Under the pieces are notes generated by a model, which saw only the letters and a list, made by a program, of their open reading frames with translations, was not told where the DNA came from and searched no databases. From the IMG/VR virus record IMGVR_UViG_2700989400_000002: a DNA stretch of 35,737 nucleotides, one strand, 5' to 3'. This document shows, piece after piece, positions 1-35,737 of the stretch (position 1 is the stretch's first letter; the number at the start of each line of letters is the position of its first letter). This DNA is from a virus. Its lineage: Duplodnaviria; Heunggongvirae; Uroviricota; Caudoviricetes. The translations under genes were made by a program, and so were the position numbers.

Positions 1-318
1 ATGAAAAAGATAGTTGCTATATCATTAATTAGTATTTTTATTGTGTCTGGTTGTGCTGTGCATAATGATGAGACAAGTATCGGTAAATTTGGTCTTGCAT
101 ATAAAAGTAATATTCAGCGTAAACTCGATAACCAATACTACACCGAAGCCGAAGCTTCTTTAGCCAGGGGCAGAATATCTGGTGCAGAAAATATAGTAAA
201 AAATGATGCAGCCCATTTCTGTGTTACTCAGGGCAAAAAAATGCAGATAGTTGACCTGAAGACAGAAGGTGCAGGATTACATGGCGTCGCTCGTCTGACA
301 TTCAAATGTGGAGAGTGA
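1..318 (+). CDS. yegR: host small lipoprotein, 105 aa (YegR-like)
   Basis: Complete ORF outside the att repeat; N-terminal signal peptide with lipobox (IVSGC); size and position beside the yegQ locus fit E. coli yegR from memory, not searched. Confidence 0.5.
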   Translation: MKKIVAISLISIFIVSGCAVHNDETSIGKFGLAYKSNIQRKLDNQYYTEAEASLARGRISGAENIVKNDAAHFCVTQGKKMQIVDLKTEGAGLHGVARLTFKCGE

Positions 319-380: not shown

Positions 381-413
381 AGCACGATGCCGTTACGTGA
401 AAGGCATCGTGCT
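381..413. other. inverted repeat hairpin (11-bp stem agcacgatgcc / ggcatcgtgct, 11-nt loop) in host-side flank
   Basis: Perfect inverted repeat read directly; no following T-run, so not a clear intrinsic terminator. Confidence 0.35.
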
Positions 414-476
414 ATGAAGGGAGATTCTATCGATGTGGTCAATGGAAGACGGTGACCAGGGATAGGGCTTATGCAT

Positions 477-503
477 AAAAAATAAGCCCGTGTAAGGGAG
501 ATT
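477..503. repeat. attL core (27-bp P2-type att core), left copy of the direct repeat
   Basis: Exact 27-bp sequence AAAAAATAAGCCCGTGTAAGGGAGATT, repeated identically at 34205..34231; integrase gene lies immediately inside. Confidence 0.85.
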
Positions 504-582
504 TAGGGTGTCACCAGTAGGGGCTTTCAACGGTACAATGCGGGTTTGAGCGGCATAAATTACCACTGAAAGCCCTTAAACG

Positions 583-1596
583 TTACTCTACTGTGGACAC
601 TGTGTGGACACTCTCGGCTTCAGTACCACCTCTTAGCGGATTAAGAGAAATGGCGTCCTGAAGGTACTCTGGCGCAAAATGAGCGTAAACCATAGTTTGC
701 TCAATCCGCGTGTGACCTAGTATCCGTTGTAGCGTGATAATACTTCCTCCATTAATCATGAAATGAGTGGCAAAGCTGTGCCTTAGTGCATGTGTGGCTT
801 GCCCCGTTGGCAAATCCGGTTTTATTGCTTTCATTGTTCGTCTGAAGCGAGGGTAATCAGCATCAGGGAATAAAAAACCTCGTTTGTTATCCGCGATCAT
901 TTTGGCAACAGCCTCTGAGATCGGGACGGTGCGTGGTTTGTTTGTTTTCGTTTTAACAAACGTGACGCGGTTATGGATGATATTTTCTGCTTTCAAACGA
1001 GCTGCTTCTCCCCAACGTGCTCCTGTACTCAGGCAAAGAATCGCAATCTTTTTATTGTCGCCGTCAAGTGCTGCAAGCAGTAAGGCAATTTCTTCCTGTG
1101 TGAGATAGCCTGTTTCTGGTTTTTCCTCCTTAAGCCTCTTTGTCCCTCTGATAGGGTGCTCACCAAAGAATAACTCCGCTTCAATCAGGGCTGTAAACAT
1201 GCCGCTAATACATGTTAAATCACGATTGATACTCGAAGGTTTAATACCCTGACTTCTTCGGGTGGCGCAGTACTGGCTGATAAGGGATTTCGTGATTTGA
1301 AATGCGCATGGGTCATTCGTTATTTTTGTGAAGATTTCAATTTTTCCAAGATTAGATTTCCCATGCTCTTCGTGTTTACCCTTTAAATCCCACCAGATCT
1401 GTGTCAGTTCCGACAGACGTCGTTTGTCTGTTGGTTTTGATAGCCATTCTTTATTGTGGTGGTTGTACAACGTGTATTTTTCGAAAGCGACAGCTTCGCT
1501 TTTCTTATCAAACTTCCTACGGATGCGTTTTCCGTTACGTCCAGTAGGGCGGATGTCCACTTCATATCGACCATCATCGAGTTTTTTGATTGCCAT
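583..1596 (-). CDS. int: tyrosine integrase, P2 Int-like (337 aa)
   Basis: 337 aa as in P2 Int; C-terminal HxxR...Y catalytic motifs (HALRHSFATH, MVYAHF); adjacent to att core. Confidence 0.9.
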   Translation of the reverse strand: MAIKKLDDGRYEVDIRPTGRNGKRIRRKFDKKSEAVAFEKYTLYNHHNKEWLSKPTDKRRLSELTQIWWDLKGKHEEHGKSNLGKIEIFTKITNDPCAFQITKSLISQYCATRRSQGIKPSSINRDLTCISGMFTALIEAELFFGEHPIRGTKRLKEEKPETGYLTQEEIALLLAALDGDNKKIAILCLSTGARWGEAARLKAENIIHNRVTFVKTKTNKPRTVPISEAVAKMIADNKRGFLFPDADYPRFRRTMKAIKPDLPTGQATHALRHSFATHFMINGGSIITLQRILGHTRIEQTMVYAHFAPEYLQDAISLNPLRGGTEAESVHTVSTVE

Positions 1597-22499: not shown

Positions 22500-24818
22500 A
22501 TGAGCACAAAATTCAGAACCGTTATCACCACTGCCGGTGCAGCAAAGCTGGCAGCGGCAACCGCACCGGGAGGGCGGAAGGTCAACATTACCACGATGGC
22601 CGTCGGGGATGGCGGTGGTAAATTGCCTGTCCCGGATGCCGGACAGACCGGGCTTATCCATGAAGTCTGGCGACATGCGCTGAACAAAATCACCCTGGAC
22701 AAACGAAACAGTAATTATATTATCGCAGAGCTGGTTATTCCGCCGGAGGTGGGCGGTTTCTGGATGCGTGAGCTTGGCCTGTACGATGATGCGGGAACGC
22801 TAATTGCCGTGGCGAACATGGCTGAAAGTTATAAACCCGCTCTTGCCGAAGGCTCAGGGCGTTCGCAGACCTGCCGCATGGTCATCATCGTCAGCAGTGT
22901 GGCCTCAGTGGAGCTGACCATTGACACCACAACGGTGATGGCAACGCAGGATTACGTTGATGACAAAATTGCAGAGCATGAACAGTCACGACGTCACCCG
23001 GACGCCTCGCTGACCGCAAAAGGTTTTACTCAGTTAAGCAGTGCAACCAACAGCGCGTCTGAAACACTGGCCGCAACGCCGAAAGCGGTAAAGGCCGCCT
23101 ATGACCTTGCTAACGGGAAATATACCGCACAGGACGCTACCACAGCGCGAAAAGGTCTTGTCCAGCTCAGTAGTGCCACCAACAGCACGTCTGAAACGCT
23201 CGCCGCAACACCAAAAGCGGTTAAGGCAGCGTATGACCTTGCTAACGGTAAATATACTGCACAGGACGCCACCACAGTGCGAAAAGGTCTTATCCAGCTC
23301 AGTAGCGTCACCAACAGCGATTCTGAAACGCTTGCGGCAACGCCAAAGGCGGTAAAGGCAGCGTATGACCTTGCTAACGGGAAATACACTGCACAGGATG
23401 CCACCACGGCGCGGAAAGGGCTTGTCCAGCTCAGTAGCGCCACCAACAGTGATTCTGAAACGCTGGCCGCAACACCAAAAGCGGTGAAGTCTGCCTATGA
23501 CAATGCTGAAAAACGTCTTCAGAAAGATCAGAACGGTGCGGATATTCCGGGAAAGGATACCTTCACGAAAAATATCGGTGCCTGTCGTGCTTATAGCGGC
23601 GCTTTGAGCACTGAAGCCGGAAACTGGACAACCGCTCAGTTTATTGAATGGCTGGATTCCCGTGGTGCATTTAATCATCCGTACTGGATGTGCAAAGGCT
23701 CCTGGTCATATGCAAATAACAAAATCATTACGGATACCGGATGTGGTGATATCCACCTGGCTGGTTGTGTCGTCGAGGTCATGGGAACTAAATCTGCAAT
23801 CACTATCCGAGTGACCACGCCGACAACATCAAGCGGTGGCGGTACAACCAGCGCACAATTCACTTACATTAATCATGGGGACGGCTACTCCCCCGGCTGG
23901 CGTCGTGACTGGAATCGTCAGGGCGACGCAATGACCGGAACGATTAATCAGGACGGTGGAAGCCAGAATGCCTATATGTCTACGGCCTTATGTTCAGGCA
24001 CAAGAGGCGGCAAAAAATATCTCAGAAAGTTTCGTGGTGGAGAAGGAGACACTATCTGGCATGAAACAGTACAGGGCGGGGTAGTTCGTTGGGCGACTGG
24101 TAATACTGATGCTCAGGAAGAATTATCACTCAGCTCCGCTTATGGTCTCCGTTCAAGAGGTGAGATTACATCACTCAGTGCTAATGGTCTGCGCATTGCT
24201 TATGGCAATTATGGATTCTTTATCAGGAATGATGGCGGCAGCACATATTTAATGCTGACGGCCTCTGGCGATAAATTTGGGACATGGAACGGCTTAAGAC
24301 CGCTGACTATCAATAACGCCAATGGCGGAGTGTCAATGGGGCATGGCCTGAGTGTTACAGGTGATATTGTCTCAAGTACCAAAGTACGTGCCGGTAGCGG
24401 GAAAAAGTTCACGGTCAGCAGCAGCAATACATCCACGAAGGAAGCCGCATTCAATTTGTGGGGAAACTCAAGTCGTCCTGTGGTGGCTGAATTAGGTGAT
24501 GATGCAGGCTGGCATTTTTACAGTCAGAGAAATACAGATAACAGCATCACTTTTGCTGTTAACGGGCAGGTATCACCATCTAACTATGGCAACTTTGATT
24601 CACGCTATGTCCGGGATATCCGGCTTGGTGGTGCTGCCACATACAAACCTGCGAACAATGGTATGACATGGACACATCAGGCACCGTCCGGGTGTGTATA
24701 TTCCGGCATTATTGTTCAGGATACCGGCTCAAACTCTGCCGATAACATTGGTGGCGTATATTACAGACCGGTGCAGAAATACATTAACGGGACTTGGTAT
24801 AACGTGGCGCAGGTATAA
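22500..24818 (+). CDS. H: tail fiber protein H (772 aa) with internal tandem repeats
   Basis: Conserved N-terminus; longer than P2 gpH (669 aa from memory); contains 132-bp in-frame tandem repeats; C-terminal half is lower in GC. Confidence 0.85.
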   Translation: MSTKFRTVITTAGAAKLAAATAPGGRKVNITTMAVGDGGGKLPVPDAGQTGLIHEVWRHALNKITLDKRNSNYIIAELVIPPEVGGFWMRELGLYDDAGTLIAVANMAESYKPALAEGSGRSQTCRMVIIVSSVASVELTIDTTTVMATQDYVDDKIAEHEQSRRHPDASLTAKGFTQLSSATNSASETLAATPKAVKAAYDLANGKYTAQDATTARKGLVQLSSATNSTSETLAATPKAVKAAYDLANGKYTAQDATTVRKGLIQLSSVTNSDSETLAATPKAVKAAYDLANGKYTAQDATTARKGLVQLSSATNSDSETLAATPKAVKSAYDNAEKRLQKDQNGADIPGKDTFTKNIGACRAYSGALSTEAGNWTTAQFIEWLDSRGAFNHPYWMCKGSWSYANNKIITDTGCGDIHLAGCVVEVMGTKSAITIRVTTPTTSSGGGTTSAQFTYINHGDGYSPGWRRDWNRQGDAMTGTINQDGGSQNAYMSTALCSGTRGGKKYLRKFRGGEGDTIWHETVQGGVVRWATGNTDAQEELSLSSAYGLRSRGEITSLSANGLRIAYGNYGFFIRNDGGSTYLMLTASGDKFGTWNGLRPLTINNANGGVSMGHGLSVTGDIVSSTKVRAGSGKKFTVSSSNTSTKEAAFNLWGNSSRPVVAELGDDAGWHFYSQRNTDNSITFAVNGQVSPSNYGNFDSRYVRDIRLGGAATYKPANNGMTWTHQAPSGCVYSGIIVQDTGSNSADNIGGVYYRPVQKYINGTWYNVAQV
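23013..23501 (+). repeat. in-frame tandem repeat inside H: about 3.6 copies of a 132-bp (44-aa) unit
   Basis: Units begin at 23031, 23163, 23295 and 23427 (partial), with a leading partial copy from 23013; they differ at a few positions. Confidence 0.85.
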
Positions 24819-33884: not shown

Positions 33885-34103
33885 ATGTTTCATTGTCCTT
33901 TATGCCAGCATGCCGCACATGCGCGTACAAGTCGCTATATCACTGACACGACAAAAGAGCGTTATCACCAGTGCCAGAACGTGAATTGCAGCGCCACGTT
34001 CATCACTTATGAGTCGGTACAGCGATACATCGTAAAGCCGGGAGAAGTCCACGCCGTAAGGCCGCACCCGTTACCGTCAGGGCAGCAAATTATGTGGATG
34101 TAA
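33885..34103 (+). CDS. ogr: late-gene transcription activator Ogr (72 aa, C4 zinc finger)
   Basis: ATG at 33885 gives 72 aa; CPLC...CQNVNC zinc-binding motif; last phage gene before attR. Confidence 0.85.
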   Translation: MFHCPLCQHAAHARTSRYITDTTKERYHQCQNVNCSATFITYESVQRYIVKPGEVHAVRPHPLPSGQQIMWM

Positions 34104-34115
34104 TTACAAACAGAA

Positions 34116-34141
34116 AGCCCCTCAGTCGAGGGGCTTTTTTG
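34116..34141 (+). terminator. intrinsic terminator after ogr
   Basis: Stem agcccctc / gaggggct with 4-nt loop followed by tttttt. Confidence 0.75.
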
Positions 34142-34204
34142 TCGATGTGGTCAATGTGTGGACGTGACCAGAAATAAATCCTTTTATTTCATTGAATTAC
34201 GCGT

Positions 34205-34231
34205 AAAAAATAAGCCCGTGTAAGGGAGATT
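34205..34231. repeat. attR core (27-bp P2-type att core), right copy of the direct repeat
   Basis: Identical to 477..503. Confidence 0.85.
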
Positions 34232-34375
34232 ACACAGGCTAAGGAGGTGGTTCCTGGTACAGCTAGCATTTTATGGGTTATGTTTTTCAGCGAAACGGAT
34301 GATAACCTTAATAAATGCAGCTGTATGTGATCGGTTTCTAAGAATTTTCCATCCGGGAAAAATAATCGAAATTAA

Positions 34376-35737
34376 TCACTTACCGTGGGGATTACGCGTG
34401 GTTTCCCCGGAGAAATTACGCATCAGCAGCGCGTAATTGAGCTCAAGATCCTGCGGGACCGGGAGCCACACAGTATAACCATCGCCTGGTGCTATCGGCA
34501 TAGCTTCGCCTTTGGCGTTTTCCATGTGCTCAAGGGTAAAATTAATGTTGCCTTGCGGCGTCATCAGCTCAAGGCTGTCGCCAACGGAGAATTTATTTTT
34601 CACCGCTACCGCCGCGAGGTCCCCCTTGCGCTCACCGGTAAACTCACCAACAAACTGCTGGCGGTCAGAAACTGAATAACCGTATTCGTAGTTCTGATAA
34701 TCGTCGTGAGTATGACGACGCAGGAAACCTTCGGTATAGCCACGATGCGCTAGACCTTCCAGAGTTTCCAGCAGGCTGGTATCGAACGGTTTTCCCGCAG
34801 CGGCGTCATCGATAGCTTTGCGGTAAACCTGTGCGGTGCGTGCACAATAGTAGAAAGATTTGGTACGACCTTCGATTTTCAGCGAATGCACGCCCATTTT
34901 GGTCAGGCGTTCTACATGGGCGATGGCGCGCAGATCTTTCGAGTTCATGATGTAAGTGCCGTGCTCATCTTCAAACGCGGTCATATACTCGCCCGGACGC
35001 TGGGCCTCTTCGATCATAAACACTTTGTCGGTTGGTGCGCCGATACCCAGCGTCGGCTCAACATTTTGCACCGGAATCGGCTCGTACTTGTGTACGATGT
35101 TGCCAACATCATCTTCTTTCCCTTCCTGGACGTTGTACTCCCAGCGGCAGGCGTTGGTGCAGGTGCCCTGGTTCGGGTCGCGCTTGTTGATATAGCCAGA
35201 GAGCAGGCAGCGACCGGAGTAGGCCATGCACAGCGCGCCGTGAACGAAGATCTCGATCTCCATATCCGGCACCTGATTGCGGATCTCTTCAATCTCTTCC
35301 AGCGACAGCTCGCGAGAGAGGATCACGCGGGTCAGGCCCATTTGCTGCCAGAATTTCACCGTCGCCCAGTTCACGGCGTTAGCCTGCACCGAAAGGTGGA
35401 TCGGCATTTCAGGGAAGTGCTCACGCACCAGCATAATCAGCCCTGGATCGGACATAATCAGCGCATCCGGCCCCATTTCCACCACCGGTTTCAGGTCACG
35501 GATAAAGGTTTTCAGCTTGGCGTTGTGCGGTGCAATGTTGACCACGACATAAAACTTTTTCCCCAGCGCGTGGGCTTCATTGATGCCGAGCTGAAGATTT
35601 TCGTGGTTGAATTCGTTGTTGCGCACACGCAGGGAATAACGCGGCTGGCCCGCATAAACAGCATCTGCGCCATAAGCGAAAGCGTAACGCATATTTTTCA
35701 GCGTTCCCGCCGGGGAAAGGAGTTCCGGTTTAAACAT
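34376..35737 (-). CDS. yegQ: host peptidase U32-family protein YegQ/TrhP-like (453 aa)
   Basis: Complete 453-aa ORF whose start codon ends exactly at the window edge; U32-type Cys-containing core; recognised from memory as E. coli YegQ, not searched. Confidence 0.75.
   Translation of the reverse strand: MFKPELLSPAGTLKNMRYAFAYGADAVYAGQPRYSLRVRNNEFNHENLQLGINEAHALGKKFYVVVNIAPHNAKLKTFIRDLKPVVEMGPDALIMSDPGLIMLVREHFPEMPIHLSVQANAVNWATVKFWQQMGLTRVILSRELSLEEIEEIRNQVPDMEIEIFVHGALCMAYSGRCLLSGYINKRDPNQGTCTNACRWEYNVQEGKEDDVGNIVHKYEPIPVQNVEPTLGIGAPTDKVFMIEEAQRPGEYMTAFEDEHGTYIMNSKDLRAIAHVERLTKMGVHSLKIEGRTKSFYYCARTAQVYRKAIDDAAAGKPFDTSLLETLEGLAHRGYTEGFLRRHTHDDYQNYEYGYSVSDRQQFVGEFTGERKGDLAAVAVKNKFSVGDSLELMTPQGNINFTLEHMENAKGEAMPIAPGDGYTVWLPVPQDLELNYALLMRNFSGETTRNPHGK

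Follow-up and report, generated by a model that had tools for sequence, protein, structure and literature searches.

The window (the whole stretch of DNA analysed, 35,737 nucleotides, IMG/VR record IMGVR_UViG_2700989400_000002) holds a P2-type prophage integrated at the 3' end of the small RNA gene cyaR, between the host genes yegR and yegQ. The features referred to in the text are listed here with their coordinates, strand and basis of assignment.

1–318, plus strand: yegR (annotation in matching E. coli records).
319–476: spacer of 158 bp between yegR and attL.
381–413, no strand assigned: hairpin with an 11-bp stem and an 11-nt loop (fold −21.1 kcal/mol, z −3.8).
414–429, plus strand: atgaagggagattcta, including a 10-mer identical to the final 10 nt of the core (in-register alignment; strain polymorphism).
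430–476, plus strand: probable decayed P arm of a P2-type attP (alignment and shuffles, P2 annotation, multi-genus P-arm alignment, longer alleles).
477–503, plus strand: 27-bp core AAAAAATAAGCCCGTGTAAGGGAGATT as found in attL (identical copies start at 477 and 34205).
504–610, plus strand: P' arm of the resident prophage, with the Cox-box region and two Int arm-type repeats (from the sequence, placed by the Cox, Int P' arm and int features annotated in P2).
592–599 and 603–610, plus strand: Int arm-type repeats TGTGGACA on the P' arm.
583–1596, minus strand: int, its 3' end overlapping the P' arm (mapped onto the P2 annotation).
33885–34103, plus strand: ogr, late-gene activator and last prophage gene (sequence; P2 annotation).
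34116–34141, plus strand: Rho-independent terminator of ogr and the F operon (P2 annotation; fold −20.2 kcal/mol).
34142–34204, plus strand: functional P arm of the resident prophage, 63 nt (P2 RefSeq protein_bind features mapped by offset).
34146–34153 (TGTGGTCA) and 34157–34164 (TGTGGACG), plus strand: Int arm-type repeats of the phage P arm.
About 34173–34206: IHF site of the phage P arm (P2 RefSeq annotation).
34205–34231, plus strand: attR copy of the core, which is the 3' half of the CyaR terminator.
34208–34293, minus strand: cyaR (ryeE) small RNA gene (Rfam RF00112, 100.7 bits, E 3e-19).
34376–35737, minus strand: yegQ (trhP), the host gene across the site (annotation in matching E. 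coli records).

The core is identical to the one annotated in the P2 record, and because its attR copy overlaps the CyaR 3' end, the P2 core is the descending half of the CyaR terminator. With yegR on one side and yegQ on the other, the site is an attB at the cyaR 3' end whose core equals the attP core, and we take it to be the classical preferred P2 site, named locI. The E. coli W genome paper counts cyaR among the integration sites of P2-type elements (PMC3032704). The resident P arm is 95–99% identical to those of P2 and of Peduovirus P22H4/P22H1. Elsewhere in the prophage, the tail-fibre gene (772 aa, 22500–24818) contains three to four tandem 132-bp (44-aa) repeats at 23018–23507 with the motif SSATNSxSETLAATPKAVKAAYDLANGKYTAQDATTxRKGL.

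An earlier note on this DNA, made from the sequence alone, had proposed that positions 430–459, on the host side of attL, match 34142–34171, at the start of the phage P arm, in about 26 of 30 positions. The match was borne out: 430–460 and 34142–34171 agree in 27 of 31 alignment columns, made up of an exact block of 15/15, a gapped patch of 6 nt and a second exact block of 8/8. Its local alignment score of 38 compares with 14.7 ± 2.2 for shuffled sequences, and none of 1000 shuffles equalled it. Similarity resumes further on and continues up to and through the core, with 94% identity over 35 nt between 469–503 and 34197–34231 (TTATGCAT vs TTACGCGT); TTATGCAT adjoins the core in the host copy. 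A global collinear alignment from TCGATG to the core scored better than 5000 of 5000 shuffles. The host segment is thus collinear with a P2-type P arm and lies on the same side of the core in the same orientation, as looked for in a homologue surviving as a relic. The alternative offered in the note, that attB and attP share homology beyond the core, is correct as a description.

In the P2 RefSeq record, tcgatgtggtcaatgtgtggacgtgacc is annotated as the "Int, P arm" binding site and is followed by the IHF site and then the core. The Int site consists of two TGTGGxCx repeats (TGTGGTCA-atg-TGTGGACG), and the P' arm repeats at 592–610 are of the same type; the consensus of arm-type sites in this family is tgTGGaCa (PMC3448106). 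We defined a functional P arm as two direct arm-type repeats with a spacing of 11 bp plus the IHF box AAATAAATCCTTTTATTTCA before the core. The host copy shares with the P2 attP its side, orientation, collinearity from the terminator-proximal boundary to the core and an identical repeat 1, which is intact at 434–441, 47 bp from the core. It differs in that repeat 2 has decayed at 445–452 (GAAGACGG vs phage TGTGGACG), so that the pair reads TGTGGTCA atg GAAGACGG, whereas the phage keeps both repeats at 34146–34164. The IHF box has also been lost from the allele in the window, which has GGATAGGGC in its place and a gap of approximately 16 nt. The relic is not part of a mobile element now and would probably not support productive Int binding; the loss of repeat 2 and the IHF box is probably also the reason that the site still serves as an attB. 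In our view, the segment from 416 or 430 to 476 is probably what remains, without function, of a P2-type attP P arm, a fossil left by an ancient integration at the same site.

The two features immediately to the left are less readily placed. The earlier note had paired the hairpin at 381–413 with the ogr terminator; both do fold (−21 and −20 kcal/mol, respectively), but homology between them is not demonstrable. We rejected the hairpin as a diverged ogr terminator on the grounds that it has no T tract and no sequence similarity, and a terminator scan of 381–413 returned no terminator-like site, so it is not an intrinsic terminator. Its stem is conserved among E. coli, and its loop is variable. 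The partial core proposed at 414–423 (aagggagatt) found no support. The letters do equal the last 10 nt of the core, an agreement with an estimated post hoc chance of ~0.002–0.004, but half of a terminator or chance fits better: the remaining 17 core positions show no excess similarity (5/17, manual count), and the 3' half of the ogr terminator, GAGGGGCTTTTTTG, matches GAAGGGAGATTCTA in register at 9/14 positions. The 10-mer region is also polymorphic among strains (AAGGGAGATT; AAGGAGGATT in K-12; AAGGGGAATT in APEC E19025). Together, the polymorphism and the in-register terminator alignment make the meaning of 414–423 ambiguous; we favor reading 414–429 as the putative decayed 3' half and T tract of an old ogr-type terminator, or as chance, rather than as a second core.

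The distribution of the segment was surveyed in 5426 complete E. coli genomes. Positions 381–503 were found in 5374 of them (99%), and the reconstructed empty site (1–503 joined to 34232–34731) was contiguous in 4565 at 95–100% identity. Presence in nearly all E. coli, empty sites included, means that the relic is the normal flank of attB and not a feature of one strain. A search of the phage collection with 381–503 found the host version in no phage; the long matches were solely to ON470606 and AY639599, which are host-flank or K-12-type-remnant records (ON470606 is a "partial genome" that includes gatR-yegS-yegR, and AY639599 is "phage TP"). The proposal that the DNA left of attL is a relic of the ogr-proximal end of an earlier P2-like element therefore stands with regard to the P-arm origin and the reuse of the surviving core, but not with regard to a recent or private predecessor, because the segment beside the present prophage is the canonical E. 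coli attB flank. The note had also held that the presence of the segment in empty-site strains with no P2 history would speak against a relic. Taken literally that is what was found, but the distinction is ill-posed because the P2 history is common to the species.

At least three lengths of the relic, 47, 59, and 66 nt, occur in E. coli. The 47-nt allele is the common one, is present in this window, and is 16 nt shorter than the phage arm. The 59-nt allele (FDAARGOS_1371) matches the phage arm in 43 of 64 columns; the 66-nt allele (APEC E19025) reads TCGATATGGTCAATGGAAGGAGGTAACCCGGTATGAATCCTTCCTTCTGTTTCATTGAATTACGCAT and has a prophage integrated beside it. Both longer alleles are collinear with the whole 63-nt phage arm and partly keep the IHF box. 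All three carry the derived CAATGGAAG, which points to a single ancestral relic that has since undergone deletions and, possibly, recombination with later phage arms.

Two further differences among strains were seen close by. An AT-rich indel of ~170 bp follows the yegR stop codon, between window positions 323 and 324 (L002 624–793; L006 2497–2666); the segment is present in AR_0086, ON470606, and APEC E19025, diverged in the Escherichia locus L089, and absent from the window and from K-12. E. coli 07-4299, which has an empty site identical to the flanks in the window, carries a parDE-type toxin-antitoxin pair between yegQ and yegP (L121 4612–5206), beyond the right end of the window.

The main alternative to a non-functional fossil is that the segment belongs to a functional, extended attB, with the arm-type site TGTGGTCA kept for Int capture or synapsis or renewed by recombination with resident prophages. 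Repeat 1 with its TCGA flank is identical to modern phages at 15/15 positions and invariant in six aligned E. coli alleles. The 66-nt allele is a mosaic, nearly phage-identical in its core-proximal 18 nt (TTTCATTGAATTACGCAT) and more diverged in its distal part, which is the pattern expected from a crossover with a phage P arm. In 99% of genomes, however, neither repeat 2 nor the IHF box survives; Shigella (TCCATGTGG) and APEC E19025 (TATGGTCA) have mutations in repeat 1 as well, and the variability of the 123-bp region exceeds what is typical of core DNA, with ~30% of genomes ≤95% identical. P2-type elements also enter cyaR in genera whose flank is without the motif, and, to our knowledge, the attB sites of lambda-type integrases need no arm sites, which counts against such a role. 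We therefore think a functional attB unlikely and retain the non-functional fossil, although, instead of simply surviving, the exact 15/15 block could have been restored later by gene conversion from resident prophages or kept by weak selection.

Comparison with other genera bears on the direction of transfer. The scan took one genome per species by a cyaR pattern, which gave 114 loci; it ran without the empty sites of E. fergusonii, E. marmotae, E. whittamii, and E. ruysiae and without Salmonella. At 53 of the 114 loci, yegR is missing and the start of yegS is no more than ~140 bp away from the cyaR pattern, across a conserved spacer; in these 53 other Enterobacteriaceae species, yegS lies ~75 bp from the cyaR terminator. 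One of them, Escherichia sp. E1V33, is the same as E. coli base for base through gatgaaagtcg and then continues into the core and cyaR. The other 61 loci, which have no yegS within ~140 bp, comprise 19 with P-arm-like sequence at the core and 42 with other DNA or with yegS out of reach. The terminator, TCGATGTGGTCAATGTGTGGAC, AAATAAATCCTTTTATTTCA, and the core adjoin cyaR in Citrobacter, Enterobacter, Huaxiibacter, E. ruysiae, and E. albertii; some of these architectures are full prophages, and others are remnants, such as that of Enterobacter sp. Bisph1 (an int fragment and a P arm). Phages Wphi and L-413C, whose core is a different one, nevertheless retain both TCGATGTGGACgctATGTGGACA and the A/T box on the downstream side of the ogr terminator. 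Because the P-arm motif is common to P2-type phages with other cores, transfer went from phage to host.

The reverse would require that the phage took its P arm from the E. coli flank by aberrant excision, the host copy being the original. Identity does peak next to the core (the 94% stretch of 35 nt), and phages that target the 3' ends of RNA genes carry host-derived sequence that rebuilds the gene. Against this, P2-type phages that differ in core and in host have the module of arm site and IHF box in common, and it fits the Int arm-site consensus, which recurs on the P' arm at 592–610 (PMC3448106); the degenerate copy is the host's, and the segment is absent from the locus in the 53 outgroup species. 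We consider transfer from host to phage very improbable.

A second, younger remnant is known at the same core. In K-12, the host segment lies to the left of a truncated attL (aaaaaaataagcccgtgta followed by gcagag), which is followed by D', ogrK, the terminator, an intact P arm, and the core; the GenBank "phage TP" record AY639599 has this same D'-ogrK remnant structure. A P2-like remnant of the K-12 type (ogrK plus the D' pseudogene yegZ) appears as "ogr-D'" in the E. coli W genome paper (PMC3032704). Like the relic, the K-12 remnant is the right end of a P2-type element at the cyaR terminator core, with the left deleted and attR preserved. Unlike it, the K-12 remnant is young, ~95–98% identical to P2 proteins, with its terminator, both repeats, IHF box, and genes recognizable, whereas the relic is far older, lacks phage-derived genes, has become fixed throughout the species and, in K-12, is found to the left of the truncated attL. 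With the old relic to the left of the young remnant, K-12 contains two successive layers. Strain S3 shows a further arrangement (L127, NZ_CP010228, 1540–1560): its host flank ends in gggagattctatc, joined to a fragment of the P2 major capsid gene and then to scrambled tail-gene fragments, with the deletion breakpoint at the left boundary of the relic (window 431/432).

Remnants such as the K-12 D'-ogr-P arm and that of S3 establish that short pieces of P2 do arise here, as a recent, lineage-specific predecessor lost shortly before the present prophage arrived would need. The segment is nevertheless present in 5374 of 5426 genomes, 4565 of them without a prophage at the site, and lies to the left of the K-12 remnant as well, so we give a recent predecessor hardly any credence. 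Chance similarity of short motifs, for which only the short length of the match speaks, can be dismissed given that 0/1000 and 0/5000 shuffles reached the scores, that the two copies are collinear, point the same way and flank the core on the same side, and that the longer alleles extend the match.

The segment is one end of a larger insertion. In E. coli, ~0.9 kb of DNA containing yegR is inserted between the ancestral yegS-cyaR spacer and the cyaR terminator, and this insert is absent from the otherwise conserved site in the 53 species, as looked for in an integrated remnant. The core is directly repeated at its two ends, exactly at the right and in decayed form at the left. In register after the ancestral spacer, the left end reads AAAAAGTCAGTTCAAGTATGGAGGATT in E. 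coli (18/27 of the core, binomial p ~6e-6) and AAACCGTCAGTCTGCATAAGAGAGATT in the divergent Escherichia locus L089 (20/27, p ~1e-7), where yegR is ~90% identical. The next 30–40 nt in E. coli resemble the P2 P' arm and not cyaR (CAGTG-GTTACCACCAGGAGCTTGCAATGG vs TAGGGTGTCACCAGTAGGGGCTTTCAACGG). This match is short (21/30 columns), with the anchored alignment equalled by 1/5000 and 6/5000 shuffles in E. coli and not significant in L089; an unconstrained local alignment of the left junction with core plus P' was not significant (112/1000 shuffles), so that significance is confined to the register-anchored tests. With a decayed core and P'-like sequence at the left and the P-arm relic and live core at the right, the ~0.9-kb insert is bracketed by attL-like and attR-like junctions. 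L089 differs strongly from E. coli in the last 100–170 bp before the core and keeps the IHF-box part of the arm (GCGTAACCAGAAACAAATCTTTTAATTCAATTGGTTACGTAT; score 40 vs 16.8 ± 2.3, 0/1000 shuffles). Like the shortness of the P' match and its lack of significance in L089, this difference weighs against the ancient-integration reading, which must then allow for repeated rounds of insertion and decay or for recombination with later phages.

The interior of the island cannot be tied to a phage, which likewise counts against this reading: tblastn with all prophage ORFs and blastn-short found only noise where P2 coding remnants were sought, and the only phage records with yegR were two that take in host flank or a prophage remnant. 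YegR is an orphan lipoprotein family (PF27694), found at this locus essentially in E. coli and Shigella only. Homologs of 66–82% identity occur at other loci, beside ivy and a nitroreductase gene, and one of 51% lies in an IS-flanked Enterobacter island. A further candidate for a "divergent" yegR locus, L132, proved to be an E. coli assembly rich in errors and was rejected. Between ogr and the P arm, the P2-type prophages that occupy cyaR in Citrobacter and Enterobacter (L111, L040, L052) carry 0.5–2.3 kb of cargo; in L111, for example, there are two genes on the minus strand, of 230 and 306 aa. A search for ogr and att sites in the P2 defence-hotspot paper gave no mention of this cargo slot (PMC13586616). 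Because extant P2-type prophages carry cargo at this position, yegR may plausibly have been cargo of the old element. The fuller proposal, that the yegR island is the shell of an ancient P2-type element with yegR as its ogr-att cargo, and that rounds of integration are layered at the cyaR terminator, is put forward tentatively, and we hold it to be rather less probable than its negation.

An ancient history of integration and deletion would link the homology, the identity of the Int site, the presence throughout the species, the absence from outgroups, the decayed left core with its P'-like sequence, and the allelic series. In an ancestor of E. coli, only ~75 bp would have separated yegS from the cyaR terminator. 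The 27-bp core that forms this terminator would then have received an element with a P2-type integrase, and later deletions would have taken nearly the whole element. The P arm beside attR would have survived because loss of the right end would destroy the cyaR terminator. At the other end, the attL copy of the core and the first ~30–40 nt of the P' arm would have persisted next to yegS and decayed, with ~0.9 kb left between the two ends, including the orphan yegR, either as element cargo or as a later insertion. The relic would then have become fixed in E. coli, where it is now represented by the 47-, 59-, and 66-nt alleles, and the resident prophage would have used the surviving core, so that the "bacterial" arm of its attL would be old phage DNA. 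Since integration rebuilds the CyaR terminator from phage DNA, deletions not made by Int would spare the core and tend to spare the P arm, and fossils would accumulate on the yegR side. Integrative elements and att relics pile up in tandem at the 3' ends of tRNA, tmRNA, and sRNA genes. The cyaR site resembles such tandem accretion in that the 3' end of an sRNA gene is reused, old junctions are pushed away and decay, and the gene-proximal core stays intact; it differs in that the gene-proximal relic consists of a recombination arm only, of ~50–65 nt, which is now the standard attB flank.

Classically, P2 is said to avoid this site in K-12, where the core has an intact P arm. An intact P arm was present at cyaR in 1219 of the genomes surveyed, and a prophage in approximately 860 (by subtraction from the empty-site count). 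Among the 5426 genomes, none had a chromosomal junction resembling attP (ogr 3' end, P arm, core, P' and int) at ≥80% coverage. These data are consistent with the idea that a core beside an intact P arm cannot be used again, and that attB competence returns once repeat 2 and the IHF box have decayed; as an argument, the absence of attP-like junctions is weakened by the clonality of laboratory K-12 strains.

The relic would explain the imperfect homology of attB and attP beyond the core of a classical phage, with the "bacterial" flank being old phage DNA, and would account for where the orphan yegR and the unusual yegS-cyaR spacing of E. coli came from. It would also illustrate a general rule: where a phage rebuilds the 3' end of an RNA gene, purging deletions spare the gene-proximal arm and arm fossils pile up. 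Prophage-boundary callers that deduce att sites from the length of repeats should take such homology into account. If the reading of the yegR island as a shell is true, a core with an intact P arm, as in K-12, would not be reused, and a decayed attR would regain attB competence. The known mechanism of P2 integration is unchanged by any of this, which concerns natural history and involves no new mechanism.

Other uses of the cyaR site were seen in related genera. E. albertii NBRC 107761 (L049, 0–400 bp left of the core) has a different relic in which repeat 2, the IHF box, and TTACGCGT are kept, and which seems, on our reading of the sequence, to be cut on the left by an apparent fragment of an IS3-family transposase. 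In many Enterobacter loci (L010, L041, L064, and related ones), a different insert of ~550 bp lies between yegS and the core and finishes with a small ORF reaching as far as the core. The hotspot has been put to a further use in these loci. The loci from Citrobacter sp. Awk 4 (L014) and bacterium BS0013 (L021) are remnant islands with intact-looking P arms and no P2 late genes, and they share an adjacent pair of genes, of ~200–237 aa and 142–149 aa, located 0.3–2.4 kb to the left of the core.
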